Positions 6,976 through 60,390 of a DNA stretch of 64,000 bases are shown in pieces. The position numbers were made by a program, and so were the translations under genes. The notes beneath the pieces are model-generated. The model saw only the letters and a program-made list of their open reading frames with translations. It was not told where the DNA came from and made no database searches. Source of the stretch: Bacteroidota bacterium (lineage in GTDB: Bacteria > Bacteroidota > Bacteroidia > UKL13-3); NCBI GenBank assembly GCA_947453415.1, contig CANGGG010000005.1, positions 2,688 through 66,687 on the forward strand. The letters run 5' to 3'. Each line of letters opens with the position of its first letter. Position 1 is the first letter of the stretch.

Positions 6976-6994
6976 AATTATTATATTATTAAGC

Positions 6995-9091: not shown

Positions 9092-9113
9092 TATATTTAC
9101 TCTTTTTTAATTA

Positions 9114-9584: not shown

Positions 9585-9613
9585 TGTAATCTATCGCTTA
9601 TCTAGCTACTAAA

Positions 9614-27799: not shown

Positions 27800-28250
27800 A
27801 TTAATTATTGTATTACTATTTGCTTTTATTGGCCAAAGTATTTTTGCGCAAGAAGTAATTTTACAAAAAAACGGTACTACCAAAACATACCAATTTTCTT
27901 TGCCTAAAAGAATAACATTTGAATACAAAACTGATAGTGGAATGATTACGATTAAAGCCAAAGCCATTCGTTACGAATTTCCTTATTTAACCATTAAAAA
28001 AAATAAAAATACGACAATAGTTGATGTAAGAAAAATTACGACACTTTATTATACTTCTCGAATTGCAGGTTTGTATTATGTTGGAGGTACTGCCATTGCG
28101 CTTTTTTGTATTCCAATAGTTGTAATATCAATGAAAGAAAGAATTTACGAAGCGGCATTTTTCTTTACTTTGCCACTCGCGCTAACCTATATTCAGTATC
28201 GGGAGGCAAACAGAACATTTGATACCCAACAAAAATGGCATTTTAAATAA
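27789..28250 (+). CDS. Hypothetical protein with the same architecture as the preceding gene
   Basis: 153 aa; 11-nt overlap with the upstream gene; signal peptide, soluble segment, two TM helices. Confidence 0.6.
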   Translation: MFYKLIIVLLFAFIGQSIFAQEVILQKNGTTKTYQFSLPKRITFEYKTDSGMITIKAKAIRYEFPYLTIKKNKNTTIVDVRKITTLYYTSRIAGLYYVGGTAIALFCIPIVVISMKERIYEAAFFFTLPLALTYIQYREANRTFDTQQKWHFK

Positions 28251-28549
28251 GTATTTTTACTTCTTTATTTTCTTATAACCATAGGCCACAACAGCGGCTA
28301 CTAATAATATAATTCCTCCATCAACTAGAACATCTTGTGGTTCGTCATCAAATCTACTAATGCTTCCTTATTTTGCATTGGCTACAAAGTTTATGCATAC
28401 CAATATTGATGTGATTGCTATTACTATCATTTTTATAATTTTCCATAATCCATATTAAAAAAAAGGCAATGCATTGCATACTTGCACCTAATAAACAAAT
28501 GTGATTATAACTAAAGCTATGTTTTGAAAAAGCAAATGTCATGCATAAC

Positions 28550-28567
28550 TTATGACTGGAGTCATAA
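28550..28567. promoter_or_regulatory. Perfect 7-4-7 palindrome TTATGAC-TGGA-GTCATAA, candidate Crp/Fnr-family site for the nos promoter
   Basis: Centre about 43 nt upstream of the transcription start predicted from the CACCTTTG box at 28588-28595; near-identical copy at 37038-37055. Confidence 0.55.
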
Positions 28568-28587
28568 ATTCAAATAGCTGTAAAACA

Positions 28588-28595
28588 CACCTTTG
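28588..28595 (+). promoter_or_regulatory. Imperfect -7 box CACCTTTG for the nos operon
   Basis: TTTG core 27 nt upstream of the cytochrome c ATG; lacks the TA, as expected for an activator-dependent promoter. Confidence 0.4.
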
Positions 28596-28621
28596 TTTCC
28601 ATAAACTAGATAAAAATAAAC

Positions 28622-29113
28622 ATGAAAAAAATCTTTGTAATCTTAACATTTGCTTCCATATTATATGCCTGCGGTGGTGGTGAATCAAAATCTGAATCTA
28701 AAACTGAAGAGGCCGTTGAGGCAACAACTGAGGGAACAGCAGCAAATGCAAACCCTGACTATGACCCTAAAAGAGGTGAAGGAAAATTTACTGCAGAAAC
28801 CGTAAAAATAGGTGCAACTATAGATGCAACTATGGTAACAGAAGGCGAAAAAATTCAATCGGTAAAATGCAGTGCTTGCCATAAACTAACTGATGAAAAA
28901 TTAGTTGGTCCAGGTTGGGCGGGTGTAACTAAACGCAGAAACCCAGAATGGATTATGAACTTTATTACCAATCCCGATCCAATGATTGACAAGGATCCAG
29001 TAGTTCAAGCCTCATTAGAACTTTGCTTAGTGCGTATGCCAAACCAAAGTTTAACAGACGATGATGCAAGACATTTATTAGAATTTATGCGTAAAAATGA
29101 CGGTGTTAAATAA
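28622..29113 (+). CDS. Monoheme c-type cytochrome lipoprotein (nos-associated)
   Basis: Lipobox ILYACGG, single CSACH heme motif, distal Met in CLVRMPNQ; 21 nt upstream of nosZ. Confidence 0.85.
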   Translation: MKKIFVILTFASILYACGGGESKSESKTEEAVEATTEGTAANANPDYDPKRGEGKFTAETVKIGATIDATMVTEGEKIQSVKCSACHKLTDEKLVGPGWAGVTKRRNPEWIMNFITNPDPMIDKDPVVQASLELCLVRMPNQSLTDDDARHLLEFMRKNDGVK

Positions 29114-29134
29114 ACAATAAAATAATTACCCCAA

Positions 29135-31096
29135 ATGAAAAAAAATATAATAATTTTAAGTTCAGTAATAGGCTTGGCCATGCTTTCGGTAGTAGGCTGC
29201 AAACCTAAAAACACAAGCAATGCAACCAGTGCCGATGCAGCACAAAAAGTGTATGTAGCACCTGGTAAATACGATGAAATTTACAACTTTGTAAGTGGTG
29301 GATTCAGTGGTCAAATGAGTGTTTATGGAATTCCGTCTGGTCGTTTGCTACGTGTTATACCCGTATTTTCACAAGATCCAGAAAAAGGTTGGGGTTACAG
29401 TGAAGAAACTAAACCTATGATGAACACATCGCATGGTTTTACTCCTTGGGATGATTTGCACCATGTGCAACTTTCAAAAACCAATGGTGAAGTAGATGGA
29501 AGATGGGTGTTTGGAAATGCAAACAATACACCTCGTGTTGCTCGCATTGATTTAAGCACTTTCCGTACTCAAGAAATTATAGAATTACCAAATAGTGGCG
29601 GAAATCACTCATCTCCTTTTATAACTGAAAATACTGAATACGTTGTTGCAGGTACTCGATTCAGTGTTCCTATGGATGATGCCAATGGCGATGTTCCAAT
29701 TAATACCTACAAACAAAACTTTAAAGGAACTTTGAGTTTTATTAGTGTAGGTAAAGAAGATGGAAAAATGGATATTGCTTTCCAAATAGAATGCCCTGGA
29801 GTAAACTTCGATTTAAGCAGAGCAGGTAAAGGCGTTTCTCATGGATGGTTCTTCTTTTCATGCTACAATACAGAACAAGCTAATACTTTGTTAGAAGTAA
29901 ATGCTTCGCAAAAAGACAAAGATTTTGTAATGGCAGTAAACTGGAAAAAAGCTGAAGAATATTTGAAAGCAGGAAAAGCAAAAAAACAAGCTGTAAGATA
30001 CGCGCACAACACCTACAGCGAAAAAACTCATTCAGCAACTTCTGAAATAAAAACTGAAGTTTTGGTTTTAAATGCTAAAGAGTTAAAAGACATTTGTTAC
30101 TTTATTCCTTGTCCTAAATCGCCACACGGTTGCGATGTATCTCCAACAGGCGAATACATTGTTGCAAGTGGTAAATTAGCTGCTGTTATTCCAGTATTTA
30201 GTTTCGATAAAATTCAAAAAGCTATAGCAGCAAAAAGCTATGATGGCGAATTTGATGGAATTCCAGTTATTAAATACGAATCGGCTTTACAAGGCGAAGT
30301 TAAAAAACCAGGCTTAGGTCCATTGCATACCGAATTTGATGACAATGGAAATGCTTACACTTCAATGTTTGTTTCTTCTGAAGTAGTAAAATGGAGCTTA
30401 AAAGATTTAAAAGTATTAGACAGAGCACCAACTTTTTATTCTATTGGTCACTTATGTGTAGTAGGTGGTGATACTAAAAAACCAACTGGAAAATACTTAA
30501 TTGCTTATAATAAAATTACCAAAGACAGGTATTTACCTACAGGTCCTGAGTTATCGCAAAGCGCACAATTATTCGACATTAGTGGCGACAAAATGAAACT
30601 ACTTTTAGATTTCCCAACCATTGGCGAACCACATTATGCACAAGCATGTTTGGCTAGTTTAATCAAAGACAAATCGGTAAAAATGTTTAAGATTGAAGAA
30701 AACAGCCATCCTTATGTAGCCAAAGGAGAAAAAGAAACTAAAGTAGTAAGAGAAGGAAACAAAGTGCATGTTTACATGACTGCCATTCGCTCACATTTAG
30801 CTCCCGATAATATTGAAGGAATTAAAATGGGAGATGAAGTATATTTCCATGTTACTAACTTAGAGCAAGATTGGGATGTGCCACATGGTTTTGCTATCAA
30901 AGGAGCATCAAATGCTGAGTTATTAATTATGCCAGGTGAAACACAAACTTTAAAATGGATTCCTACTAAAGTGGGTATTTCACCCATGTATTGTACCGAT
31001 TTTTGTAGTGCTTTACACCAAGAAATGCAAGGATATGTTCGAGTTTCACCAGCATCAAGTAAGCTTCCAATTAGCTTTAGTTTAGGTGCTAAATAA
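29135..31096 (+). CDS. nosZ: Nitrous-oxide reductase, Sec/lipoprotein-type (clade II)
   Basis: 653 aa; N-terminus MKKNIIILSSVIGLAMLSVVGC has a lipobox and no twin-arginine; C-terminal CuA motif CTDFCSALHQEMQGY. Confidence 0.95.
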   Translation: MKKNIIILSSVIGLAMLSVVGCKPKNTSNATSADAAQKVYVAPGKYDEIYNFVSGGFSGQMSVYGIPSGRLLRVIPVFSQDPEKGWGYSEETKPMMNTSHGFTPWDDLHHVQLSKTNGEVDGRWVFGNANNTPRVARIDLSTFRTQEIIELPNSGGNHSSPFITENTEYVVAGTRFSVPMDDANGDVPINTYKQNFKGTLSFISVGKEDGKMDIAFQIECPGVNFDLSRAGKGVSHGWFFFSCYNTEQANTLLEVNASQKDKDFVMAVNWKKAEEYLKAGKAKKQAVRYAHNTYSEKTHSATSEIKTEVLVLNAKELKDICYFIPCPKSPHGCDVSPTGEYIVASGKLAAVIPVFSFDKIQKAIAAKSYDGEFDGIPVIKYESALQGEVKKPGLGPLHTEFDDNGNAYTSMFVSSEVVKWSLKDLKVLDRAPTFYSIGHLCVVGGDTKKPTGKYLIAYNKITKDRYLPTGPELSQSAQLFDISGDKMKLLLDFPTIGEPHYAQACLASLIKDKSVKMFKIEENSHPYVAKGEKETKVVREGNKVHVYMTAIRSHLAPDNIEGIKMGDEVYFHVTNLEQDWDVPHGFAIKGASNAELLIMPGETQTLKWIPTKVGISPMYCTDFCSALHQEMQGYVRVSPASSKLPISFSLGAK

Positions 31097-31134
31097 TAAT
31101 TTATAAAGGATCTTTCAAAAGCTCTTATTTCCTA

Positions 31135-31203
31135 GTCAGTTCGAGCGAAGTCGAAAAACTTATATTTTCGTTTTCAACATATTTCGACTTCGCTCAATAT
31201 GAC
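31135..31203. repeat. REP-like inverted repeat GTCAnnnnGAGCGAAGTCGAAA / TTTCGACTTCGCTCnnnnTGAC
   Basis: Perfect 14-bp arms at 31143-31156 and 31182-31195, extendable to about 22 bp with mismatches. Confidence 0.75.
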
Positions 31204-31211
31204 AAAATGTG

Positions 31212-31245
31212 AAGAGGCTGCCCTTTTGAGACAGCCTCTTTTATT
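31212..31245 (+). terminator. Hairpin plus T-rich tract after nosZ (terminator or attenuator)
   Basis: AAGAGGCTG-cccttttgaga-CAGCCTCTT followed by TTATTT. Confidence 0.7.
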
Positions 31246-31272
31246 TAACAGTCATTCAATTTTTCAATTACC

Positions 31273-32277
31273 ATGAAATTAACAACATTATCGCGCGTGC
31301 TTTTATTAGCAGCAGCCGTACTTTTAGGTTCATCTATTTTTGTTGCCATTTGGCGCATAGAATTAGAAGCACCGCAATATCCTGAGGGCTTAAATCTATT
31401 AATTTATGCCAATAAATTAGGTGGAAACGTAGATATAATAAATGGTTTGAACCATTATATTGGTATGCAAACTTTGCATGCCGAAAACTTTATTGAGTTT
31501 ACCATTTTGCCTTATATCATTGGTTTTTTTGCTGCATTTTCTTTGCTTGCAGCAATACTTGCAAACAAAAAAGTAGCAAATATTTTATTCTTTTCATTTG
31601 TAGCTTTTGGCATTATAGCCATGATTGATTTTTACAGATGGAATTATAATTACGGACATAATTTAGATCCAAATGCAGCCATTATAGTTCCTGGAATGGC
31701 TTATCAACCGCCATTGATTGGCTATAAACAATTATTGAACTTTGGCGCATTTTCAACTCCAGATATTGGTGGTTGGTTTTTTATAACTGCTGGTTTATTC
31801 ATGCTAACCGTATTTGTAACAGGAACAAAACTTTGGGACAAAAAATTTACAAAAAATATTGTTTCATTAGTTGTTTTTGGATTTATATCTATGCTAACTT
31901 CTTGCTCAACAGATGGACCAAAACAACCAAAATTAAATAATACTAATTGCGATTTTTGTAAAATGACCATTGCCAACGAAAAATTTATTGCACAATGTGC
32001 AACCGATAAAGGCAGGGTTTATTACTTTGACGACATTAGTTGCATGGTGAGATTTAAAAGTGAAAACAGTACTATTGCTTTTGAGAATTTTTTTATTGCC
32101 GACTTTAACAATCCAGCTAAATATTTAAAAGGAAGCGAAGCAATTTTGTTTAAAAACGAAGAAATAAAAAGTCCAATGGGCGGCAATATTATTGCTTTTT
32201 CAAAGCAAACCGATGCAGAAGAATTTTTACAAAAACATGCTGCAACAAAAGTTTCATGGACAGAATTAAACAAGTAA
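31273..32277 (+). CDS. nosL: Fusion ORF: N-terminal polytopic membrane domain (NosB-like position) plus C-terminal NosL copper-chaperone domain
   Basis: 334 aa. Residues 1-190 have about 5 TM helices. An internal lipoprotein-like signal KNIVSLVVFGFISMLTSC is followed by the NosL-type CDFCKMTI...YFDDISCM...SPMGGNIIAF. Confidence 0.8.
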   Translation: MKLTTLSRVLLLAAAVLLGSSIFVAIWRIELEAPQYPEGLNLLIYANKLGGNVDIINGLNHYIGMQTLHAENFIEFTILPYIIGFFAAFSLLAAILANKKVANILFFSFVAFGIIAMIDFYRWNYNYGHNLDPNAAIIVPGMAYQPPLIGYKQLLNFGAFSTPDIGGWFFITAGLFMLTVFVTGTKLWDKKFTKNIVSLVVFGFISMLTSCSTDGPKQPKLNNTNCDFCKMTIANEKFIAQCATDKGRVYYFDDISCMVRFKSENSTIAFENFFIADFNNPAKYLKGSEAILFKNEEIKSPMGGNIIAFSKQTDAEEFLQKHAATKVSWTELNK

Positions 32278-32300
32278 TTGATAAAACCAAAAGGCAAACA

Positions 32301-33524
32301 ATGCTAAGTATATTAAGCATTGTTTTTGCATTTATAGCAAATGGTAAAACCATTACCGTTGGTCAAAATAAACAGTGTAAAACTATTCATCAAGCCATAA
32401 AAATTGCGGCAACTTTCGATACCATAGAAATACATGAAGGCTTGTACAAAGAAGGAAATATAGTAGTTGATAAATCGCTGTATATAAAAGGAATTAACAA
32501 GCCTGTTTTAGATGGAGAAAAAAAATTTGAAATTCTTTCTGTAAAATCGAACTTTACTACCATTGATGGTTTAATAGTGCAACATTCGGGTTATGCTACG
32601 CTCGATGATCCAGGTGGAATAAAGGTGTATGATTCGCACCATGTTAACATTATAAACAATACACTTTCTGATAATTTTTTTGGTGTTTATATTCAATACG
32701 GACAACATTGTATAATTAAAAACAACAATATTGAAGCCTTTGGAGTGGAAGAACAGCAAATAGGGAATGGCATTCATTGTTGGAAAAGTGATAGCCTACA
32801 AATTATTGGAAATAAAATTACAGGACACCGAGATGGAATATATTTTGAGTTTGTAAAAGGTTCCATTATTTGGCGAAACATTTCCTATAAAAACATTCGT
32901 TATGGCTTGCATTTTATGTTCTCGAACGATGATGCATATATTGGCAATATATTTAAAAACAATGGCGCTGGTGTATCGGTAATGTTTACCAAAAACGTAA
33001 AAATGTTTAACAATTATTTTATCGATAATTGGGGCGATGCAGCTTATGGATTATTGCTAAAAGAAATATCCGATAGTTATATTTTCAACAACCGTTTTTT
33101 ATCGAACACTTCAGGAATTTATATGGAAGGTACTAGCCGAATAAAAGTGGAAAATAATAGTTTTAATAACAACGGCTGGGGAATGAAAATACAAGCAAGT
33201 TGCATGGAAAATAACATCATCAACAACAATTTTAAAAACAATACTTTCGATGTAAGCACCAATGGTTCTTTGGTATTGAACGTTTTTAACAAAAACTATT
33301 GGGACAAATACGAAGGCTACGATTTAAATAAGGACAATATTGGCGATGTAGCCTATCATCCTTTAAGTTTATTTTCTATTATTGTGGAAAATAATGCTTC
33401 GGTGATGTTGTTGTATCAAAGTTTTTTTGCCATGCTTTTAGATAAATCGGAAAAGGTAATTCCAAGTTTAACACCCACTAATTTTATAGATGAGCAACCC
33501 TTAATGCACCCAATTTTACTATGA
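32301..33524 (+). CDS. nosD: NosD, periplasmic parallel beta-helix copper-centre assembly protein
   Basis: Signal peptide from the ATG at 32301, many NNxI/GIxL beta-helix repeats; ATGA overlap with nosF. Confidence 0.9.
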   Translation: MLSILSIVFAFIANGKTITVGQNKQCKTIHQAIKIAATFDTIEIHEGLYKEGNIVVDKSLYIKGINKPVLDGEKKFEILSVKSNFTTIDGLIVQHSGYATLDDPGGIKVYDSHHVNIINNTLSDNFFGVYIQYGQHCIIKNNNIEAFGVEEQQIGNGIHCWKSDSLQIIGNKITGHRDGIYFEFVKGSIIWRNISYKNIRYGLHFMFSNDDAYIGNIFKNNGAGVSVMFTKNVKMFNNYFIDNWGDAAYGLLLKEISDSYIFNNRFLSNTSGIYMEGTSRIKVENNSFNNNGWGMKIQASCMENNIINNNFKNNTFDVSTNGSLVLNVFNKNYWDKYEGYDLNKDNIGDVAYHPLSLFSIIVENNASVMLLYQSFFAMLLDKSEKVIPSLTPTNFIDEQPLMHPILL

Positions 33525-34234
33525 TAGCTATTCAAAATATTTCGAAAAAATTTGGTAAACTAACAGTTTTAGATGGTTCCTCGGCTCAATTTAATAAAGG
33601 TGAATGCATTGCTTTAATTGGCCCGAACGGTTGCGGAAAAACTACTTTAATAAAAAGTATTTTAGGAATGGTAGTTCCCAATACTGGCAATATTTTGTTC
33701 AATGATGTTTCCATAAAAAATGAATTTTTATACAGAAACAATATTGGTTACATGCCGCAAATAGGTCGCTATCCCGAAAACATGAACATTGGCCAAGTAA
33801 TTGATATGATAAAAAATATTAGAAATTATAACAGTCAATTAGATGAAGAATTATTGGATTTATACAAAATAAAAGACCTGCTTAACAAAAAAATGAGAAC
33901 GCTTTCGGGCGGAACTACTCAAAAAATAAGCGCAACCATTGCATTTTTATTTAACCCCGATGTATTGATTTTAGATGAACCCACAGCAGGTTTAGATCCT
34001 TTGGCAGCGGAAATTTTAAAGGAAAAAATTATTAAGGAAAAACAAAAAGGCAAGCTCATTATTATTACATCGCACTTACTCAGTGAGCTAGATGAGTTGG
34101 TAACGCAAGTGGTTTTTATGCAAGATGGAAAAATAAAGTTTCATAAAAACACCGAAGAATTAAAAAACGATACGCAAATGCCAACTATTGCCAAGGCAAT
34201 TACTCATATTTTAAAAGCTACTGCGCATGAATAG
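33521..34234 (+). CDS. nosF: NosF ABC ATPase
   Basis: Walker A GPNGCGKTT, signature LSGGTTQK, Walker B ILDEP. Confidence 0.9.
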   Translation: MIAIQNISKKFGKLTVLDGSSAQFNKGECIALIGPNGCGKTTLIKSILGMVVPNTGNILFNDVSIKNEFLYRNNIGYMPQIGRYPENMNIGQVIDMIKNIRNYNSQLDEELLDLYKIKDLLNKKMRTLSGGTTQKISATIAFLFNPDVLILDEPTAGLDPLAAEILKEKIIKEKQKGKLIIITSHLLSELDELVTQVVFMQDGKIKFHKNTEELKNDTQMPTIAKAITHILKATAHE

Positions 34235-34994
34235 ATTGATAAAATTTGTAGTACTCGACATGATAAAGAATAGAACCATTTTGGGTTATACTTTGCTTTT
34301 AGCAATATTTAGCTGGAGTGTTTTTGGACTAGAAGACAATGCCACCAAAGGCGTTTTAACTTTGCTAAATATTATGCTTTTAATAGTTCCATTGGTAAGT
34401 ATAATTTTTTCAACTATTTATATTTATAATAGTTCCGAATTTATTGATTTAATGGTAAGTCAGCCGGTAAAAAGAAGTAAAATTTGGACCAGTTTATTTA
34501 TTGGTTTAAGCATTTCGCAAATATTGGCTTTTGTAGTTGGAGTAGGCATTCCGTTGTTATTATTTGCACCAATAAACATTGCATTGAGCATGATAAGCGT
34601 TGGCTGTATAGTTAGTATTATATTTATTGCCATTGCTTTTTTAGCTTGCGCAATTACGCACGATAAATCAAAGGGAATTGGTGTTTCTATTATGCTTTGG
34701 TTATACTTTGCTTTGCTGTTTGACGGATTAGTATTGTTCCTGTTGTTTCAATTTGCAGACTATCCAATTGAGCATATTATGATTGGAATAACCATGCTAA
34801 GCCCAATTGATATGGCACGAATACTCATATTATTACAGTTAAATGTGTCGGCATTACTTGGACATACGGGAGCTATTTTTACTGATTTTTTCGGTACAAT
34901 AATTGGAACTTTTATTTCTACCTTTGTACTTTGCCTTTGGGCAATTATTCCATTTTATTTATCTTTACGCATGTTTAACAAAAAAGACTTATAA
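34227..34994 (+). CDS. nosY: NosY ABC-2 type permease
   Basis: 255 aa, six TM helices, 8-nt overlap with nosF. Confidence 0.85.
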   Translation: MNRLIKFVVLDMIKNRTILGYTLLLAIFSWSVFGLEDNATKGVLTLLNIMLLIVPLVSIIFSTIYIYNSSEFIDLMVSQPVKRSKIWTSLFIGLSISQILAFVVGVGIPLLLFAPINIALSMISVGCIVSIIFIAIAFLACAITHDKSKGIGVSIMLWLYFALLFDGLVLFLLFQFADYPIEHIMIGITMLSPIDMARILILLQLNVSALLGHTGAIFTDFFGTIIGTFISTFVLCLWAIIPFYLSLRMFNKKDL

Positions 34995-34997
34995 CAT

Positions 34998-35912
34998 ATG
35001 ACGAATATTGAGATTTTAGTCAATCAAATTAAAGAAAAGTACGAAAAACTAGGAGAAAATCCTGAAACATATTTAAAAGGATTGCTGCAAGCAAAACCTA
35101 TAAACTATTGGGATTACATAGAAGTTGACACCTTATTATCGCTTCAAAAGCCAAGAACAAACTTTAAAGATGAAGAAATTTTCATCATGTACCATCAGGT
35201 AACAGAATTGTTTTTAAAACTAATGTTACATGAAATAAAACAAGTAGCAGTTGAAGCAATTTATACGGAAGAGTTTTTGATGAATAAATTTACAAGAATC
35301 ATTCGTTACACGCAAATGCTAATTAATTCCTTCGATATTATGAAAGACGGAATGAATTACGATGATTACAATGTATTTAGAGCAACTTTAGCGCCAGCAA
35401 GTGGTTTTCAAAGTGCGCAATTTAGGTTCATTGAATTGCATTGTACCGGATTAGAAAACTTAATGAATGAAGCAGGTAGAGAACGTATAAGTTTAAATCC
35501 AACTACCGAAGAATACTTTGACCATATCTATTGGAAAGATGCTGGATTGAACAGAAAAACCGGCAAAAAAAATCTGACACTTACCTTATTTGAAGAAAAA
35601 TATTTACATCAATTCATCAGTTTAGCAAACACCATGAAAGGAAAAACTATAGCTGATAGACTGAATGAATTACCTAATAAATCGGAAGCATTATTAAACA
35701 TGTTAAGAGAGTTTGACCATTTGTATAATGTGGCTTGGCCAATGGTTCATTTAAATACTGCAAAGCATTATTTAGACAGTAAAAACGAGAACCAACAAGC
35801 AACGGGAGGTTCTGAATGGAAAAAATACTTAATGCCTAAATTCCAACAGCGTAAGTTTTTTCCTGCTTTTTGGAGCAATGAAGAAAAAGAAAAATGGGGT
35901 GAAAGCATTTAA
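34998..35912 (+). CDS. Tryptophan 2,3-dioxygenase family heme protein
   Basis: YWDYIEVDTLLSLQKP...DEEIFIMYHQVTELFLKL, LAPASGFQSAQFRFIE, ...MVHLNTAKHYL...TGGS align with the TDO signature regions as I recall them; starts 3 nt after the nosY stop. Confidence 0.85.
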   Translation: MTNIEILVNQIKEKYEKLGENPETYLKGLLQAKPINYWDYIEVDTLLSLQKPRTNFKDEEIFIMYHQVTELFLKLMLHEIKQVAVEAIYTEEFLMNKFTRIIRYTQMLINSFDIMKDGMNYDDYNVFRATLAPASGFQSAQFRFIELHCTGLENLMNEAGRERISLNPTTEEYFDHIYWKDAGLNRKTGKKNLTLTLFEEKYLHQFISLANTMKGKTIADRLNELPNKSEALLNMLREFDHLYNVAWPMVHLNTAKHYLDSKNENQQATGGSEWKKYLMPKFQQRKFFPAFWSNEEKEKWGESI

Positions 35913-35915
35913 ATA

Positions 35916-36293
35916 ATGGAAGACATTGATATTATTAATGACATAAAAACTAAAATTGACATAGAAATTCTAGTCAATGCATTTTATGAAAAAGTAAAAA
36001 AAGACAACCAAATCAGTCACTTTTTCAAACATGTAAACTGGAAAACTCATATGCCAATTATGTATGTATTTTGGGAAAACGTACTTTTTTATACAGGAAG
36101 TTATGTTGGAAATCCAATGCTTTTACACAAAAAATTGCATGCACATATGCCTTTAAGCAAAAAAGATTTTGACCAATGGATTCATTTATTTCATGAAACA
36201 ATCAATGAAAATTATGAAGGAAAAATGGCTGAGGCAATGAAAGAAAGAGCCAATAATATATCCATTATAATGCAAACTAAAATATTGGTTTAA
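35916..36293 (+). CDS. Group III truncated hemoglobin
   Basis: 125 aa; FYEKVKKDNQISHFF, GSYVGNPMLLHKKLH, FDQWIHLFHETI resemble Ctb-type trHb; starts 3 nt after the TDO stop. Confidence 0.85.
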   Translation: MEDIDIINDIKTKIDIEILVNAFYEKVKKDNQISHFFKHVNWKTHMPIMYVFWENVLFYTGSYVGNPMLLHKKLHAHMPLSKKDFDQWIHLFHETINENYEGKMAEAMKERANNISIIMQTKILV

Positions 36294-36326
36294 CAACCTT
36301 CAATTACAACATTAAATACAAAACAA

Positions 36327-36360
36327 AATGGCTGCATTTATAAAATAAATGCAGCCATTT
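36327..36360. terminator. Bidirectional terminator between the nos operon and the fasciclin gene
   Basis: AAATGGCTGCATTTA-taaaa-TAAATGCAGCCATTT followed by TTATT. Confidence 0.85.
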
Positions 36361-36426
36361 TTATTAGAAACCCTTCAATAAATTAATTAAAACTTGAACA
36401 TAAAAATTGTGTCTGATAAAAAATCA

Positions 36427-36987
36427 CTAATTACCTGGAAGTAAAACTTCGTCTATAACATGAATAATACCGTTAGAGGCTGGAATAGAAGCTAAAATAT
36501 GCGCTTTTCCATTAACAACTGGTTTACCATCAACCATTGTAATTTTTATATTCCCACCATTTACTTGACCAAATGTTTGACCATCTTGCAAAGATTCTGG
36601 TTTAAGCACACCAACATAAACGTGGTATTGTAAAATATCAGTCAATGCATCTATTTTTTCTGGTTTTAATAAACCTTCAACCGTGCCAGCAGGTAATTTA
36701 TCGAAAGCTGCATTAGTAGGAGCAAATACAGTAAAAGGTCCTGCATTACTTAAAACATCCACTAATTTAGCGGCAGTAACGGCAGCAACTAAAGTTGTAT
36801 GATCCTTACTTCCAACTGCTACTTGAACAACGTTTGGATTTGATACATCATCTTTAACACCTGATTGACCAGCACCTGTGGCTTCAGTTTGAGTTGCTTC
36901 AGCTTCTTTAGCTGGAGTATTTGCGCTATTACAGCTAGCAGCTAGCATGGCTGCTACTACGATACAATTTTTTATTACTTTTTTCAT
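36427..36987 (-). CDS. Fasciclin (FAS1) domain lipoprotein
   Basis: Lipobox MLAASC, low-complexity linker, then ...TVFAPTNAAFDKLP...GIIHVIDEVLLP FAS1 motifs. Confidence 0.88.
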   Translation of the reverse strand: MKKVIKNCIVVAAMLAASCNSANTPAKEAEATQTEATGAGQSGVKDDVSNPNVVQVAVGSKDHTTLVAAVTAAKLVDVLSNAGPFTVFAPTNAAFDKLPAGTVEGLLKPEKIDALTDILQYHVYVGVLKPESLQDGQTFGQVNGGNIKITMVDGKPVVNGKAHILASIPASNGIIHVIDEVLLPGN

Positions 36988-37009
36988 ATTTCTGTATTTT
37001 ATACAGCAT

Positions 37010-37017
37010 CAAATTGA
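37010..37017 (-). promoter_or_regulatory. -7-like box TCAATTTG for the fasciclin gene
   Basis: Plus CAAATTGA 23 nt upstream of the ATG. Confidence 0.4.
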
Positions 37018-37037
37018 CAACTATTTATATTTATTTA

Positions 37038-37055
37038 TTATGACCCGAATCATAA
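37038..37055. promoter_or_regulatory. Second copy of the Crp/Fnr-type box: TTATGAC-CCGA-ATCATAA
   Basis: 13 of 14 arm positions match the 28550 palindrome; centre again about 43 nt upstream of the predicted transcription start. Confidence 0.5.
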
Positions 37056-37103
37056 AAACAAAATGATATTCAGCATTAAGAAATAATATTAAAAAACTAA
37101 AAA

Positions 37104-39113
37104 TTAGTTCAAATAATAATTGAATCCAATTGAAACATTCCTCCCAAACTGAGGTACGCCACCCCAATCTAAGTGTTCGCGATAATTTAAATCAAGCAAA
37201 TTCTCAATACCAATGTTTAATTGAAAAGATGAAGTTTTAATTGCTTTAGCAAAAGCAACTCTAGCATTAAATATTTGCCAAGATGAAGTTTTACTTTCAC
37301 CAAAATCTATATTTATATTTTTTTGACTAGATGCTAATACATGTTCTATTTGAAACTGAAATGTATTCTTTTGATATCGCAATGTATTGACAAATTTCAA
37401 AGGTGGAACTTGCTGCATAAACTGGCCATTACTTAACAATCCATATGTAAATCGAACATTTCCTTTGTATATAATTTTCTTCAAAAGTTTAACAGTTGTA
37501 GCAGTTTCAAATCCCATAAGTTGAGCATTACTAATATTGGCATATGTTTTAACTCCTCTACCTCCTATAGTCATTGGGCTATATTTATTAAGAATATAAC
37601 CATAAATATAATTTTCAATTTGATGAAAAAATAAAGTTGTATTAAAATTCCATTTTTTCTTATCAATGGTATTTGAAAATTCCATTTGTATGGCTTTTTC
37701 TGGCGCTAAATTGTAGTTACCTATATAATCAAAACCATCGGCACGATTAAATAAATAAAAACCAATTCTTTCATTGCTAGTTGGCAATCTTTGCCCATAA
37801 CCAATTGTGAATTTATTGGTAAAAACACCTTTTTTTATTTGAAAAAACAAAGAAGAAGTAGTTAAAAAATTCTGTTTATTTTCATTCGTATTTATTCCAA
37901 ATCCTTGCCATTGTAAAACACCAAATTCATCCGTTACGTATTGATAGTTATAATCTTCTCGAATATTAAAACCAATACATTTTAGGCTATCAATATTTAA
38001 CAAATAATTAGCAGCCAAACCAATATTATACAAAAAATTCCCTGGTAAAGTTTGCATAAACATTGGCTTTTCATTGTTTGGATACATAGTCATTTCAGCT
38101 TTTGTAAATGCTTGATGTGCATCAATTCTAACATTGAAAAGTTGTTTTTTTAGTTGTATTTTATATTGAGAATAAAATCCATTGGTGTAACTCCAACTTG
38201 GCATGTCCATGTGCATAATAGTTTCAAGTCTGTGGGTATCATCCATGGCATGAGTAATGTTGTTATGGTAAAATTTTGTTTCTAAAACTTTATTATAATT
38301 ACTTGAAACAAATCGATGTGTTACAGAAAAAATATTGGCTTTTGCAAACGCAACATCCATGGGTAAAGCAGGGTAACCAATATTAGATCCATTGTCGTTT
38401 ATATAGTCGAAAATAATATGATTGGTTTTGTTTAATTGATAAGCAACACTAAAGTTCAAATTCAATTTTTCGTAACCACTATGTAAAATAGTAATGTCTC
38501 CTCCTGCTTTGTAATCATTAGCTTTTCTATATGCACCACTCATTCTTAAAGCAAATTTATTAGAGTTGGTATTTAAGCTAAATCCAATGTTTTTTGAAAG
38601 ATTGGCGAAGCCATATTGCGTATAAAAATTTATTTGTGGATGGTCTTTACAATTAAATGAAGCTTCCTTCAATTGTATGTTCAAACTTCCTCCAATGGTA
38701 CTTCCCAATAAGCCACCAGCAGTTCCTTGGTTTACTTCTAATTTACTTAAATTACTGGGTTCAACATATGTTGTAACAGGATCCATTTTATCTGTACAAG
38801 CACCGTACATTTTCATTCCATTTAAGGTAATGTTTATTTGTCCGGCACTGTAAGTTCTAAGGGTTGGTTCCATTCCAAATGCGCCTCTTCTTATTAAATT
38901 TACACCTTCTATTCGTTGTAAAATATCTTCGGTGCTAGCTAATTTGCTGCTTCTGTAAAAGTTAAATGCTTCATTGGTTTTATTGGTTTCGTTTTCGCAA
39001 ATTACTACTTCTTTCAGCGTTGTAATTTTGTTGGCTGAATCAATAGCATTGAATTGAGAAAAACCTTTAAAATAAAAAAATAGCAGTAAAATAAATACGT
39101 TTTTTTTCGACAT
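37104..39113 (-). CDS. TonB-dependent outer-membrane receptor
   Basis: 669 aa, signal peptide, plug domain (...RIEGVNLIRRGAFGMEPTLRTY...), beta-barrel with aromatic-rich strands. Confidence 0.88.
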   Translation of the reverse strand: MSKKNVFILLLFFYFKGFSQFNAIDSANKITTLKEVVICENETNKTNEAFNFYRSSKLASTEDILQRIEGVNLIRRGAFGMEPTLRTYSAGQINITLNGMKMYGACTDKMDPVTTYVEPSNLSKLEVNQGTAGGLLGSTIGGSLNIQLKEASFNCKDHPQINFYTQYGFANLSKNIGFSLNTNSNKFALRMSGAYRKANDYKAGGDITILHSGYEKLNLNFSVAYQLNKTNHIIFDYINDNGSNIGYPALPMDVAFAKANIFSVTHRFVSSNYNKVLETKFYHNNITHAMDDTHRLETIMHMDMPSWSYTNGFYSQYKIQLKKQLFNVRIDAHQAFTKAEMTMYPNNEKPMFMQTLPGNFLYNIGLAANYLLNIDSLKCIGFNIREDYNYQYVTDEFGVLQWQGFGINTNENKQNFLTTSSLFFQIKKGVFTNKFTIGYGQRLPTSNERIGFYLFNRADGFDYIGNYNLAPEKAIQMEFSNTIDKKKWNFNTTLFFHQIENYIYGYILNKYSPMTIGGRGVKTYANISNAQLMGFETATTVKLLKKIIYKGNVRFTYGLLSNGQFMQQVPPLKFVNTLRYQKNTFQFQIEHVLASSQKNINIDFGESKTSSWQIFNARVAFAKAIKTSSFQLNIGIENLLDLNYREHLDWGGVPQFGRNVSIGFNYYLN

Positions 39114-39176
39114 AATTAAATAAAAACAAAGAACATTTATATCTTAAATGCTCTTTGTTAATAATTGTTTTTAAAT

Positions 39177-40004
39177 TTATAAAGTTATATCAAACGATTG
39201 GTTATCACTAATAATAACACCATTCTTTTTGATTATAATTTTTACATTCCATAATCCTGTCATGGTAAAATTAACTAATCCTGTATAATGTCCCAATTCA
39301 GTAAAAACTGGATTTACATTATTTGGTGAACCGTGACCCATGCTAGGCATTATTGGAACTATTTCTACATTATAATCATCTACTGCTGTAAAACCCATCA
39401 ATGAATCTTTTTTATGAATAGAAATCTCGAAATTATTTAAACCAATTTTTGGTAAATTTGGCTGAATTAATGATACAAAAAGATTGGTACTGTCATTTGC
39501 AGTAAAACTTTTCATCACTGAAGTGGTTGGATTTATAATAGAAACTTCCAATTCTCCATCACCTTCCATGTCTATTTTATGGTTATGAAAAGCCATGTTT
39601 AAAGTCCATTTGCCCGCTGTACTTGGCATTATAAAAACAATGGCCGCTTTCCAAAATTTATCAGCGGGCATGGTGTCTTCTTCTAATTCTATAGGTGCTG
39701 CATGTGCTAACATTTCCATATCAACCATTATAGAATTTGCATCAAAATGGCCATTTGTTAATCGTGTATTTGTAACTGAATCATACATGGCTACAAATAT
39801 TTTATTATATCCTACAAATAGCTCTTTTTCAGCATAAACTTTTGCTTTGGCCGCAGCGCCATAAATATAGGTTTCACCAATTAATTTATAATTACTTGGA
39901 ATTTCATCTGTTGGAGTTGGTATTATTGATTCATCTTTTTTACATGCTTTTGTAGCAAGTAATATGGTAGCAAATGTAATTGCCAATATTGTTTTAAATT
40001 TCAT
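39177..40004 (-). CDS. Lipoprotein with two YtkA/FixH-like Ig-fold repeats carrying Met/His-rich motifs
   Basis: Lipobox LATKAC; MVDMEMLAHAAP...GKWTLNMAFHNH and IMPSMGHGSPNN...GLWNVKIIIKKNG; the domain name is my recollection of the family. Confidence 0.65.
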   Translation of the reverse strand: MKFKTILAITFATILLATKACKKDESIIPTPTDEIPSNYKLIGETYIYGAAAKAKVYAEKELFVGYNKIFVAMYDSVTNTRLTNGHFDANSIMVDMEMLAHAAPIELEEDTMPADKFWKAAIVFIMPSTAGKWTLNMAFHNHKIDMEGDGELEVSIINPTTSVMKSFTANDSTNLFVSLIQPNLPKIGLNNFEISIHKKDSLMGFTAVDDYNVEIVPIMPSMGHGSPNNVNPVFTELGHYTGLVNFTMTGLWNVKIIIKKNGVIISDNQSFDITL

Positions 40005-40082
40005 AAAAGGTAATTGTTTTTTTTAAAATAATTGAGGTTACGATTTTGATAAAAATCGTTCAAGTAAAATCAGTAAAATAAA

Positions 40083-40457
40083 TTAATATTTTGGTGGCTG
40101 AAATATTCTTGGCTCAAAAGCAGTTAGAAGTTTACTGCTATATTTAATAAAAAAATGAAAAGAAACAAATTGCAAAAATATATTTGAAGTGTGTTTTTCA
40201 AAAAATAAAACTTCTTCAATATTGTTCTTGTTAGTATTTGAATTAGTACTTTTGGGAGTATCAGCTTCTTCGGTGTTTTTTAAAGTATTTTTCAAATAAC
40301 ATTTACCCTTACATTTCAGTTCTGGCTTAGCTTTATTTATACAGAATAATTCTATTATTTGCTTTTGATTTATTTTAAACCAAGTAATTACACCTACCCT
40401 ATTGGTTAATTGCAATAGCATACAAAGTAAAAGCGATATGGATATCATTCTTTTCAA
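40083..40457 (-). CDS. Small Cys-motif membrane-anchored hypothetical protein
   Basis: About 121-124 aa (TTG at 40457 or ATG at 40448); N-terminal TM helix, CINKAKPELKCKGKCYL, C-terminal ...FQPPKY. Confidence 0.6.
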   Translation of the reverse strand: MKRMISISLLLCMLLQLTNRVGVITWFKINQKQIIELFCINKAKPELKCKGKCYLKNTLKNTEEADTPKSTNSNTNKNNIEEVLFFEKHTSNIFLQFVSFHFFIKYSSKLLTAFEPRIFQPPKY

Positions 40458-40464
40458 ATGATTA

Positions 40465-40472
40465 CAAAGCTA
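40465..40472 (-). promoter_or_regulatory. -7 box TAGCTTTG for the small Cys-protein/receptor genes
   Basis: Plus CAAAGCTA immediately upstream of the 40457 ORF. Confidence 0.45.
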
Positions 40473-40504
40473 ATAAAAACAATAATTAATTTTAATTATG
40501 GGTT

Positions 40505-41737
40505 TCATAATAAATGCTTAATTTTTTTAATTTTCAAATTCACAAAAAACAAAGAGAATGTAGCTAAAAACAAACACAAGGCAATGGCAAATAAAATGGT
40601 GTTCACATAAGGAATAACAGTATAACTAAATGAAGCAATTCCTTGAATAGCTAAAACAAATTCATTTAAAAATACGCCAATTGCAAAGCAAAGCAATGCA
40701 ATAATTCCACTTTTAGCATGAGATAACAAATGTGTGCTGAATAAATAAAGCAATAATAAAATAGAAATAAATGCCAATAAAACTAAATGCAAATAGGCAA
40801 TTACAATGGGCCTGAATCCAAAAGCTAATGTGCTTACAAAAGGAATGGTGGAGCCTAATTGCAATGTAAATTTTACAAAACCAGCTATGGCCACAAAGTA
40901 AATTAAAAACATAATAGTATTTGAGTATTTACTTTGTAAATGAAGGTGGTAAAAAACACTTTTTAACAATAAAATCCAGCCAACAAACTGGGTAAAGGCA
41001 GCAGCAACTACAATGATATAAAGCCAAATAGGAAGATGAGCCCAAAGTGTAGATAGAAAATATGCTGGTATACAAGACCAAAACAAAAGTCCAAATATCA
41101 ATTTATCGTTTTTTATTACCACATTAAATTTATTAGCAAGGCCAGTAAATAAACCCATGCAAGCAAAGAAGAACCAACCATTATATTGAAAATGTAAATA
41201 GAAATATACTGAAGCTAAATAAGGTGTTTGATGCAAGTTTTTAGTAACCATCATATATGCCAAAGCAACAGTTCCTAATGCAGAAAAAATGGCGAAAACT
41301 AAAGCGCCTTTGAACCATTTTATAGCTTGAAAATATTGTTTAAATTGAGTAGAATGATTAAAAAACAACTGTGTAAAAACTACAATTATAGCTACTGAAA
41401 CAGCAGAAAATGTAATAGAAAAAAAGCCATATCCTTGAATAAAAAATGAAACCAATATGCCATAAGCACTTATCAAATTTAACCAAAGTAAAATATTGTA
41501 TTTTTTTAATTGAAATAATTTTAAGAAAGGTGCAATTAAACTAACTATTAACACCAAAAGTGTTTGCGTTACCCAACCTACAAAGGCAAAGTGTGAATGG
41601 GCATGTTGCACATTTTTTTGATCGAAATAAGGGAATTCAAAACCAATTTTAAACCTCATAAGTACACCTAAACTGGCAACAATAAAAAGGTTAAACAACG
41701 CAATTTTTATCCAAAAACTGGAAGAATATTTAATCAT
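40505..41737 (-). CDS. His-rich 12-TM integral membrane protein (tentatively NnrS-like)
   Basis: 410 aa, about 12 TM helices; conserved-looking HAHSHFAFVGW, YLHFQYNGWFFF, AYLHLVLL; its ATG overlaps the regulator stop (TAATG). Confidence 0.8.
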   Translation of the reverse strand: MIKYSSSFWIKIALFNLFIVASLGVLMRFKIGFEFPYFDQKNVQHAHSHFAFVGWVTQTLLVLIVSLIAPFLKLFQLKKYNILLWLNLISAYGILVSFFIQGYGFFSITFSAVSVAIIVVFTQLFFNHSTQFKQYFQAIKWFKGALVFAIFSALGTVALAYMMVTKNLHQTPYLASVYFYLHFQYNGWFFFACMGLFTGLANKFNVVIKNDKLIFGLLFWSCIPAYFLSTLWAHLPIWLYIIVVAAAFTQFVGWILLLKSVFYHLHLQSKYSNTIMFLIYFVAIAGFVKFTLQLGSTIPFVSTLAFGFRPIVIAYLHLVLLAFISILLLLYLFSTHLLSHAKSGIIALLCFAIGVFLNEFVLAIQGIASFSYTVIPYVNTILFAIALCLFLATFSLFFVNLKIKKIKHLL

Positions 41738-42339
41738 TAAATATACAATTTTCTGTTAATAATTTGAACTTGATTTTTATTCTCCATTTTTTTAAGCGTT
41801 CTAATTACAGTTTCTACTCTTAAACCAGTTAAATTAGCTATTTCTTGGCGCGTATGAGAAATCAATAACGGAGAAATATTCGAATCATCTTTCTTTTTTA
41901 TTGAATGTAAAAATCCTAAAATTTTCAGATCTGGAGTATTATGAATAAGTTCTCGAGCTGTAATTGATTTGTTGTAAATTTTTTGAGCAAAAATTTTCAA
42001 AAAATTAAATTGAATTTTAGGATCATCTTCAATCATTTTAAAAAAACTTGCTTTAGAAAGTACCATTATTATAGAATCTTTTTGAACAATGGCTGTAGAA
42101 GGATATTTTTCGTTAATAAACAATGGAGGTTCGCCAAATCCATTTCCATCATAAAAAATTCCTTGAATGTATTCACTTCCATCGTTATGCAAATTAATTA
42201 ATTTGACTTGACCTTCGATGATTTGGTAGTAAAATTGTGCAATATCATCTTCAGAAAAAACAATTTGATTTTTTCTGAATTTTTTTGCAACACCACCCCA
42301 AGCAATCAAAATGTTTATATCAATTTGCGTACTATTCAT
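41737..42339 (-). CDS. Crp/Fnr family transcriptional regulator without any cysteine
   Basis: 200 aa; cNMP-binding beta-roll (...QIIEGQVKL...GFGEPPLF...), C-terminal HTH TRQEIANLTGLRVETVIRTLKKM. Confidence 0.88.
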   Translation of the reverse strand: MNSTQIDINILIAWGGVAKKFRKNQIVFSEDDIAQFYYQIIEGQVKLINLHNDGSEYIQGIFYDGNGFGEPPLFINEKYPSTAIVQKDSIIMVLSKASFFKMIEDDPKIQFNFLKIFAQKIYNKSITARELIHNTPDLKILGFLHSIKKKDDSNISPLLISHTRQEIANLTGLRVETVIRTLKKMENKNQVQIINRKLYI

Positions 42340-42418
42340 TATTGCAATGATATATATTAAAAATCCTTTACTTAGTTGATTTCTGTTTTTTCAAAATATG
42401 ATGAAAGTATTATAAAAT

Positions 42419-42772
42419 CTAAAATGAATCAATTTGCGTTAAAAAGGGCTGAGCTAATTTAAATGGAGCCACATTGCAGTATGCAGCTGTTAAAACCTCC
42501 ATTAATAGGTCTTTTTCTATTAATTTTAAATTTACTAAAGTCCAACCATATTTGCCGGCTCTATTTGGAACTGCATAAATGATGGAAGCATCAATCATAC
42601 AAAACAATGGCTGTTCTTCTAAACTTAATTTTACACAGCACCTATTTTCTTTTTGATTATGGGTAACAAATATTTTTCCTTTTATTTTATAACATAACAT
42701 ATTTCTATGAGGTGCTTCTGTTGTTTCAGGATATAACAATGGTAATTCTTTGAAACTTTCGTTTGAAACCAT
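42419..42772 (-). CDS. MmcQ/YjbR-like protein
   Basis: 117 aa; ...YKIKGKIFVTH...WTLVNL... pattern of the YjbR fold (from memory). Confidence 0.6.
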   Translation of the reverse strand: MVSNESFKELPLLYPETTEAPHRNMLCYKIKGKIFVTHNQKENRCCVKLSLEEQPLFCMIDASIIYAVPNRAGKYGWTLVNLKLIEKDLLMEVLTAAYCNVAPFKLAQPFLTQIDSF

Positions 42773-42774
42773 GA

Positions 42775-43344: not shown

Positions 43345-43363
43345 TATTAAAGTGTTAAATATA

Positions 43364-60316: not shown

Positions 60317-60390
60317 TAAAAGTTAAATTACAAAAAATACAGCCAAAGGCCGTTTAGTTAGTGGAAGCCAAAGGCAAAAAGCAAAAAAAT

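Follow-up and report, generated by a model that had tools for sequence, protein, structure and literature searches.

A probable N-oxide respiration island in a Bacteroidota genome: a clade II nos operon, a predicted operator shared with a fasciclin gene, and a regulator gene beside one for a membrane protein of oxidase-like fold

We analysed a window of 64,000 nucleotides from a Bacteroidota genome (assembly GCA_947453415.1, contig CANGGG010000005.1, positions 2,688 to 66,687 of the forward strand), the middle of which carries genes for the respiration of nitrous oxide (N2O). Fourteen contiguous open reading frames (ORFs) occupy positions 28622-42339, eight on the plus and six on the minus strand, in two convergent arms (Table 1). 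The plus arm carries the nos genes, a gene of the TDO family of heme dioxygenases and a truncated haemoglobin gene, and the minus arm encodes a Crp/Fnr-family regulator, a twelve-helix membrane protein (TM12), a small Cys-containing protein, a YtkA-domain lipoprotein, a TonB-dependent receptor and a fasciclin (FAS1) lipoprotein. Gene identities were taken from Pfam and NCBIfam model searches of the window proteins, and these searches and the ORF calls agree with the positions and domains proposed for the fourteen genes in an original prediction made from the sequence alone. The G+C content of the window is approximately 31% and that of the island equals that of its flanks, the flanking genes are housekeeping genes, and a scan for repeats at the island borders revealed no insertion sequence or integrase scars. 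The NosD protein of the window is 91-98% identical to proteins from metagenome-assembled genomes (MAGs) of freshwater-lake Bacteroidota. With moderate confidence, we assign the region to the chromosome of an uncultured freshwater Bacteroidota bacterium and interpret it as an island for N-oxide respiration, present in some relatives and missing from others, that is made up of four modules.

The core of the plus arm is, from its protein families and gene order, a textbook Sec-type (clade II) nos operon. NosZ scores 941 bits against TIGR04246 (cut-off 625) and 373 bits against the TAT-type model, and its N-terminus, MKKNIIILSSVIGLAMLSVVGC, has a lipobox and neither an RR pair nor a twin-arginine motif. 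NosD also exceeds the cut-off of its model. The clade II assignment of the original prediction stands. The gene it had labelled as a transmembrane segment fused to nosL encodes the known NosB-NosL fusion, in which a polytopic NosB part is followed by a lipobox and then by the NosL domain; the fusion and its two NosB motifs, both present here, were described earlier in Flavobacterium and Dyadobacter (PMC9697520). The order cytochrome c-nosZ-nosB-L-nosDFY, the Sec-dependent NosZ, the fusion motifs and the absence of nosR and nosX are shared with the clade II clusters of Flavobacterium azooxidireducens and Dyadobacter fermentans, and the Pfam results contain no nosR, nosG or nosH homologue among the island genes. 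This core operon would make N2O reductase, load it with copper and feed electrons to it. Signal peptides with a lipobox Cys are found at the cytochrome c (28622), NosZ (29135), the NosL part of the fusion (~31930), the fasciclin protein (36987) and the YtkA protein (40004); because all five N-termini are of the lipoprotein type, the periplasmic machinery is apparently entirely membrane-tethered.

Table 1. Genes and predicted regulatory features of the island, in order of position in the window
Feature	Position	Strand	Evidence or remark
Operator box 1, TTATGACTGGAGTCATAA (predicted)	28550-28567	+	24 nt before TTTG 28592-28595 of the cytochrome c-nos promoter
Lipoprotein mono-heme cytochrome c (NosC-like), first gene of the nos operon	28622-29113	+	PF00034; lipobox LYAC
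NosZ, Sec-dependent clade II N2O reductase, lipoprotein signal peptide	29135-31096	+	TIGR04246
Hairpin followed by UUUUAUUU, 3' of nosZ; candidate internal terminator or attenuator	31212-31240	+	-16.3 kcal/mol, z = -4.5
NosB-NosL fusion	31273-32277	+	Pfam NosL at residues 223-332; NosB motifs LNHYIGM and YGHN
NosD	32256-33524	+	TIGR04247, 404.6 bits (cut-off 300)
NosF, ABC ATPase	33521-34234	+	PF00005; synteny in all loci
NosY, ABC-2 permease	34227-34994	+	PF12679; synteny
TDO-family heme dioxygenase	34998-35912	+	PF03301, 85.5 bits; 3 nt after nosY
Group III truncated haemoglobin (Ctb-like), last gene of the plus arm	35916-36293	+	PF01152
Bidirectional intrinsic terminator common to both arms (predicted)	36325-36361	both	hairpin with A-run and T-run
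FAS1 (fasciclin) lipoprotein	36427-36987	-	PF02469, 8e-33; own box-dependent promoter (predicted)
Operator box 2, TTATGATTCGGGTCATAA (predicted)	37038-37055	-	24 nt before TTTG 37013-37010, upstream of the fasciclin gene
TonB-dependent receptor, OprC/NosA type	37104-39113	-	TIGR01778, 2e-39, below cut-off; OprC best PDB match
Hairpin with U-tract between the YtkA and receptor genes; possible internal terminator or attenuator	39125-39159	-	-16.3 kcal/mol, z = -6.8
YtkA-domain lipoprotein	39177-40004	-	PF13115; invariant M93, M96, H101, M126; MPSMGHGSP
Small membrane-anchored protein, 124 aa	40083-40457	-	invariant C39, C49, C53 (C-x9-C-x3-C)
TM12, twelve-helix membrane protein, 410 aa	40505-41737	-	unannotated family; fold like heme-copper oxidase subunit I
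Cys-less Crp/Fnr-family regulator	41737-42339	-	PF00027, PF13545, PF00325; stop overlaps the TM12 start by 1 nt
YjbR-family gene	42419-42772	-	Pfam; inside the segment missing from nos-less relatives

A NosD-anchored scan of one genome per species gave 80 loci with up to 10 kb of flank each, against which the window proteins were compared by tblastn. These loci span the Chitinophagales, Saprospiraceae, Sphingobacteriales, Flavobacteriales and Cytophagales to the Ignavibacteria and Calditrichota, and counts out of 37 refer throughout to full-length loci of Bacteroidota that do not belong to the species group of the window itself. The core cytochrome c-nosZ-nosB/L-nosDFY is present in all 37, with the cytochrome c gene upstream of nosZ in every full locus surveyed. 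Among the genes that the original prediction had assigned to the island, the fasciclin gene (29/37), the Crp gene (28/37), TM12 (25/37) and the group III truncated haemoglobin gene (23/37) do accompany nos, whereas the TDO-like gene (2/37) and the receptor, YtkA and small genes (3, 2 and 2 of 37) generally do not. The fasciclin gene also occurs in 4 of 7 full loci from Ignavibacteria, Calditrichota and Marinimicrobia, and in loci of these lineages and in Cytophagales it is found inside the operon, as cytochrome c-fasciclin-nosZ or nosZ-fasciclin-nosB. The Crp and TM12 genes are adjacent in most TM12-bearing loci and co-oriented, being either divergent from the cytochrome c gene or convergent 3' of nosY, and the globin gene directly follows nosY, sometimes with a hemerythrin gene between them. 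Because the linkage of these four genes to nos has outlasted such rearrangements, a functional tie to N2O reduction is suggested.

The same modules also occur in other settings. Homologues of TM12 led to five Flavobacteriia contigs, of which two belong to named Flavobacterium genomes, another to a further NCBI assembly and the last two to JGI metagenomes. In four of the five, the receptor, YtkA and small genes flank Crp-TM12. On these contigs the Crp-TM12-fasciclin and receptor modules adjoin NorCB-like genes, nrdDG and RIC/ScdA; nos is present on two, and on at least one contig carrying these modules nos does not lie within 10 kb. Contrary to the original prediction, these modules are thus not specific to N2O. 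On four contigs (L081, L082, L164 and L165) Crp-TM12 belongs to a bigger anaerobic island that holds, depending on the contig, a fasciclin gene, a NorC-like cytochrome c gene with a COX1-family gene, nrdDG, ScdA/RIC and nadAB; in the two named Flavobacterium genomes among them (L081 and L082), the globin gene and nosYFD(L) are part of that island as well.

The two arms of the window meet at an intrinsic bidirectional terminator, predicted from a perfect 17-bp stem flanked by an A-run and a T-run, with folding energies of -21.8 and -22.3 kcal/mol on the two strands (z = -7.4 and -6.0). The original prediction had located it almost exactly (36327-36360). It had also described the arms as two convergent transcription units, which is too simple, since the fasciclin gene has a box and predicted promoter of its own and both arms contain an internal hairpin (Table 1). 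An Rfam scan of positions 27500-43500 gave as its sole match a sub-threshold small RNA over the hairpin 3' of nosZ. The minus arm is not a single unit, given that the fasciclin gene has its separate box and promoter, that no box stands before crp and that a hairpin parts the YtkA gene from the receptor gene.

The box in question is a palindrome, TTATGAY-N4-RTCATAA, of which two copies lie in the island, each 24 nt upstream of a TTTG. The -7 promoter element of Bacteroidetes is TAnnTTTG, and the TTTG downstream of the box fits it. That two copies exist, that they are common to nos and a second gene and that they are conserved as a regulatory element would be, all agree with the original prediction; the second copy, however, precedes the fasciclin gene, the last of the minus arm, and not crp. 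The 79-nt region upstream of crp contains no copy, only an unrelated TTTCA-N8-TGAAA repeat, and upstream of the small gene of the window there is only a TTATG-N5-CATAA, whose spacing is wrong for the box. Strict matches to ATGAY-N4-RTCAT number three in the 64 kb, against 0.29 expected. The third, at 60460, was considered as an operator and set aside as a chance match because it lies inside ORF 60361-63774, which presumably encodes an RND-type pump (by reading of the sequence rather than by a family search).

Conservation of the box extends far beyond the window. The loci, 1.28 Mb in all, contain 94 strict sites, and a cytochrome c, fasciclin, Crp or TM12 gene begins within 260 nt downstream of 60 of these; 33 of 57 cytochrome c upstream regions contain one, and none is found upstream of nosZ, nosD or the globin, TDO-like, receptor or YtkA genes in the surveyed loci. 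Sites with at most two mismatches from TTATGAYNNNNRTCATAA are present in 32 of 55 cytochrome c and 22 of 42 fasciclin upstream regions, compared with 148 of 5000 (3%) random 200-nt windows, and an nTTG follows 23-25 nt downstream in 41 of 54 such sites. Across loci the arms are invariant while the central N4 drifts, and some lineages use a TTATGC variant half-site. A matrix of 52 unique sites defines a 5-4-5 inverted repeat with a TGA-N6-TCA core and a fixed 24-nt spacing to TTTG. It does not match the FNR consensus TTGAT-N4-ATCAA, as its outer position is A (ATGAY) and its flanks are TT/AA. On this evidence, TTATGAY-N4-RTCATAA is a conserved operator, albeit a predicted one. Other genes preceded by the box, identified by reading of their sequences, are RIC/ScdA-like, ccoNO-like, CcoI-like (a P-type ATPase) and Usp-like, and in Flavobacterium genomes it stands before a NorC-like cytochrome c gene (with a COX1-family gene next), before ScdA and in the intergenic region between the small and Crp genes. 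A Chitinophagaceae locus (L035) carries further boxes, at 8213 and 12487, before nosB-L and before a 134-aa cytochrome c gene 3' of the globin gene; from these extra copies, the subdivision of the operon varies by lineage.

The TDO-like gene follows a different course from its neighbours. Its product scores 99.8 bits against TIGR03036 (cut-off 390.7), with only the N-terminal half matching. In a phmmer alignment with the TDO structure 2nox the distal His, the substrate Tyr and Arg, SGFQS, the proximal His and TGG are present, and a C-terminal stretch aligns weakly; judged from these residues, activity as a heme dioxygenase is probable. Of 80 loci with a TDO-like gene returned by a scan of metagenomes, about six have it next to nos. 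Its usual cluster has the order Rrf2 regulator, group III truncated haemoglobin paralogue, 144-aa protein, TDO, sometimes a 105-aa protein, and hemerythrin (for example L093 at 6693-9729, and approximately 45 others in L092-L159). This Rrf2-globin-TDO-hemerythrin stress cluster looks undescribed and NsrR-like, and it pairs the dioxygenase with a globin. Two contigs (L085 and L086) with 91-92% nucleotide identity to the window lack positions 28257-34900 and 35914-42773, along with a GyrI-like gene (43364-43849), and have kept the TDO gene together with the last ~94 nt of nosY. This 3' remnant of nosY marks a deletion scar, so that the island is a presence/absence polymorphism within the lineage that arose by deletion, in which TDO is retained without nos. 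The variable segment reaches 42773 and takes in the YjbR gene, beyond the island end of 42339 originally given. A role of the TDO-like gene as a nos accessory was considered and rejected, given its absence from 35 of 37 other nos loci, its mostly different contexts and its retention by nos-less relatives; that it serves N2O respiration, as first proposed, is contradicted by this absence from nosZ neighbourhoods. From its metagenome context and its retention without nos, it is a lineage-specific passenger with a link to truncated-haemoglobin-type globins. A 36-nt direct repeat with 86% identity occurs at 27565-27600 (in gene 27308-27799) and at 34126-34161 (in nosF); its copies are separated by 6561 nt, a distance similar to the length of the first deletion, yet they do not lie at the breakpoints of that deletion.

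The tight packing of the fourteen genes, their common terminator and the palindrome found in both arms could be taken to mean, as the original prediction did, that the whole is a dedicated N2O-respiration island of two convergent operons in which every accessory gene serves NosZ, and the frequent co-occurrence of fasciclin, globin, Crp and TM12 genes with nosZ and the presence of a copper-type receptor are in keeping with it. We nonetheless regard it as unlikely, since the second palindrome stands before the fasciclin gene and internal hairpins split both arms, since the TDO-like gene is missing from 35/37 loci, sits beside nos in ~6/80 and is kept by nos-less relatives, and since Crp-TM12-fasciclin and the copper genes also flank NorCB-like genes, nrdDG and RIC. 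The original prediction was largely correct in its genes, terminator, palindrome and Cys-less regulator, and right in outline to see a nos island that is under regulation and has helpers for copper and heme; its operon structure, the part given to TDO and the restriction to N2O need revision. A reading in which several modules of N-oxide respiration come together at this locus fits these observations better.

One of these modules comprises the receptor, the YtkA-domain lipoprotein and the small protein, and it may handle copper. OprC structures are the only PDB relatives of the receptor (phmmer), and against 6fok its GACtdkMD pairs with GACpnrMD and its HaMD with HiMD, so that the CxxxM and HxM ligands are kept. 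In OprC/NosA the copper site consists of Cys143, Met147, His323 and Met325, with CxxxM in the plug and HxM on the barrel wall (PMC8610252). The identity of all four aligned ligand residues supports a copper transporter of the NosA/OprC-like kind, in line with the copper import proposed originally for the receptor set. The profile of the YtkA protein matches a 'copper resistance protein' (9ll2, E = 3e-4). The small protein has no family match in Pfam or NCBIfam, and its gene always accompanies the YtkA and receptor genes in the loci seen. With the help of the trio, copper for NosZ would pass the outer membrane and then the periplasm. With OprC/NosA the receptor shares a plug and barrel, the CxxxM/HxM ligands and the historical link of NosA to the copper supply of NosZ (PMC8610252); it differs in its Bacteroidota origin, its low overall similarity (136 against 472 bits) and its company, as a YtkA-domain Met/His lipoprotein and a small protein with three Cys have not been described for OprC. 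It is conceivable instead that what the trio handles is heme, iron, zinc or a supply of copper meant chiefly for the cbb3 oxidase. The receptor weakly matches heme and ZnuD models and falls under the copper equivalog cut-off, the trio stands beside Nor-type islands although cNOR has no copper, OprC occurs in many non-denitrifiers, and another family of TonB-dependent transporters supplies oxidase copper (PMC8610252, PMC12914433). The top-scoring family and the only structural relatives of the receptor are nevertheless OprC, its four copper ligands align, and its partner lipoprotein has conserved Met/His motifs and a copper-resistance match, all of which make a function other than copper supply to NosZ improbable.

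Regulation of the island would fall to the Crp/Fnr-family protein. It consists of a cNMP-binding-like domain and a C-terminal Crp-type helix-turn-helix (HTH) with the recognition helix LRVETVIR, and its matches to models and structures of Crp, FixK, Fnr and DNR are all weak and non-specific. As originally noted, the protein contains no Cys at all; lacking the FNR Cys cluster, it is not FNR proper. LRVETVIR is unchanged in orthologues of 34-98% identity, and the loci whose Crp has another helix (L069 and L074) have TTGAC-N4-GTCAA in place of the box. Orthologues in nine loci (L024-L027, L037, L039, L047, L051 and L059; 29-38% identical) have a CxxC(H/N) motif just before the HTH. The window protein is free of Cys, and lineages with an identical recognition helix may nevertheless differ in their sensory input. 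We propose that the Cys-less Crp, translationally coupled to TM12, would bind TTATGAY-N4-RTCATAA. The box has a fixed, class-II-like position, with 24 nt between it and the -7 TTTG and at about -43 relative to the start site, and from there the regulator would act as an activator that turns on nos and, separately, the fasciclin gene. As for DNR/NnrR, the signal is most likely NO and/or low O2, and not N2O, because the box elsewhere in Bacteroidota precedes a NorC-like/COX1 pair, RIC/ScdA, ccoNO and TM12. In Proteobacteria dnrN/RIC, nor and nos are core members of the NO regulon (PMC1274295).

Like DNR/NnrR, the window regulator belongs to the Crp/Fnr family but lacks the Cys cluster of FNR, and its presumed box is a 5-4-5 palindrome that has TGA-N6-TCA as its core and a class-II-like position. 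As in the nnrR-nnrS pair, a His-bearing membrane protein of about 400 aa and twelve transmembrane helices is encoded beside the regulator; as in DNR/NnrR, the predicted regulon includes nos, a NorCB-like pair and dnrN/RIC (PMC1274295). The differences from DNR/NnrR lie in the box, here (T)TATGAY-N4-RTCATA(A) and there TTGAT-N4-ATCAA or TTGCG-N4-CGCAA, and in the recognition helix, here E--IR and there E--SR; moreover, the window regulator matches no DNR/NnrR equivalog.

TM12 is the component of the island with real potential for novelty. Its homologues number more than 4840, every one of them named 'hypothetical' and without any domain in Pfam, and a profile search gave 1904 clusters at 50% identity, all of them stand-alone proteins of ~400 aa. 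H47, H182 and H317 are invariant in the alignment and H49 is nearly so. The AlphaFold (AF2) model of the protein (pLDDT 86.7, pTM 0.90) has twelve long helices, and in Foldseek it matches only subunit I of heme-copper oxidases, namely cbb3 CcoN, NorB and aa3/bo3 subunit I (including 3mk7, 8smr, 3o0r and 4xyd), with TM-scores of 0.65-0.76 and a probability of 1.00. At the level of helix placement, the conserved His fall on helices II, VI and X, which bear ligands in true oxidases. The original idea of a membrane heme/Cu protein thus gains support as far as the fold is concerned. TM12 shares with CcoN and NorB the twelve-helix fold and the invariant His on helices II, VI and X, and differs in that the six canonical His ligands (II, VI, two on VII, two on X) are not kept, in its length of ~410 aa and in having no partner subunits encoded beside it. 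Its place behind the Cys-less Crp parallels the nnrR-nnrS order, and on the likeliest reading TM12 would bind heme and, at the membrane, deal with NO or report it, as NnrS does beside NnrR; it differs from NnrS in not matching the Pfam family PF05940.

As helices II and X carry the low-spin heme ligands in heme-copper oxidases, and as no nosR, nosG or nosH is seen in the island, TM12, often found with nos, could alternatively be a heme b quinol dehydrogenase that feeds the lipoprotein cytochrome c and NosZ and so fills the NosR/NosGH gap in Bacteroidota. We consider this very unlikely: the gene is coupled to that of the regulator and not to the nos operon, it is often on the opposite strand, it also stands beside NorCB-like genes, which need no such donor, and some third of the Bacteroidota nos loci, as well as all seven loci of Ignavibacteria and Calditrichota, do not have it.

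The two remaining accessory proteins have recognisable folds. The fasciclin protein covers positions 2-123 of the 123 in PF02469 and matches Fdp (1w7d) at 1e-34. The globin finds its best PDB match in Ctb of Campylobacter (2ig3, E = 1e-10) with FY, H, H and W aligned, which we take to be B10 Tyr, E7 His, F8 His and G8 Trp. As a conserved partner of nos it probably scavenges NO or O2. Both it and Ctb, its best structural relative, are tied to a Crp/Fnr-type N-oxide regulon, whereas the gene for the window globin forms the 3' end of the nos operon and is not preceded by a separate box. The buffering of O2 or NO that the original prediction attributed to two heme proteins remains plausible for the globin. 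That the non-nos genes are mere neighbours brought along by genomic hitch-hiking is true or plausible for the TDO-like and YjbR genes and otherwise highly improbable, because synteny contradicts it for the fasciclin, globin, Crp and TM12 genes, which stay linked to nos across orders despite rearrangements, and because the fasciclin gene lies inside the operon in deep lineages and has its operator in common with nos.

Taken together, these observations lead us to a tentative proposal, which we rate as possible rather than likely: TM12 would be an undescribed branch of the heme-copper-oxidase fold that, with the Cys-less Crp, forms a membrane input for NO or O2 and times nos and nor expression through the box, and N2O reductase of the FCB group, which unites Bacteroidota with relatives (here the Ignavibacteria and Calditrichota), would have in the FAS1 lipoprotein a core accessory that has so far gone unrecognised. 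If this holds, it would explain when Bacteroidota, the dominant non-denitrifying N2O sinks, turn on nos and nor. The candidates on offer are (i) a regulator with its operator and promoter geometry, (ii) a large unannotated family of oxidase fold tied to that regulator, (iii) a fasciclin lipoprotein that accompanies nosZ from Bacteroidota to Ignavibacteria and Calditrichota, (iv) a conserved globin and (v) a NosA-like copper import module.

A number of points weigh against this interpretation of the island. No box stands before crp, TM12 or the copper module in the window, which makes the co-regulation of these genes with nos conjectural here, and the boxes before ccoNO and Usp fit a general low-oxygen regulon as well as they fit an NO regulon. 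The two His that true heme-copper oxidases carry on helix VII are missing from TM12; 21 members of the family gave no Pfam match (neither to COX1 nor, even at E <= 5, to PF05940) and no NCBIfam match, and hhalign of TM12 against the CcoN sequence returned a probability of 0.3. TM12 is thus oxidase-like in fold only, and its cofactor binding is conjecture. The receptor reaches 135.8 bits against a TIGR01778 cut-off of 472.45, even though this is still its best-scoring family, the copper trio lies within 10 kb of NosD in only 2-3 of 37 loci, and NosA is dispensable for NosZ in at least one strain of Pseudomonas stutzeri (PMC8610252). Finally, a literature search, which left subscription reviews outside its scope, found nothing on fasciclin, globin, Crp-TM12 or copper genes or on the operator in Bacteroidota nos clusters.

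Published accounts of the Flavobacterium azooxidireducens and Dyadobacter fermentans clusters, among the searchable papers, end at nosY and mention none of these genes nor the box, by which the locus described here differs from them, and an account of how NosZ is regulated, copper-loaded or protected in Bacteroidota was likewise not found in searchable papers. Most clade II nosZ in wastewater plants is carried by Bacteroidota (PMC11409646), and Cloacibacterium sp. CB-01, a member of this phylum, is under test as an inoculant against N2O emissions from farmland (PMC11168931). The gain or loss of the island within a species-level population matters for inferring nosZ from taxonomy. Among the surveyed loci, three that are typical of Bacteroidota nos come from MAGs titled Methylophilus, Bifidobacteriaceae and Comamonas (L024, L031 and L039), the bins of which are probably mislabelled or contaminated.

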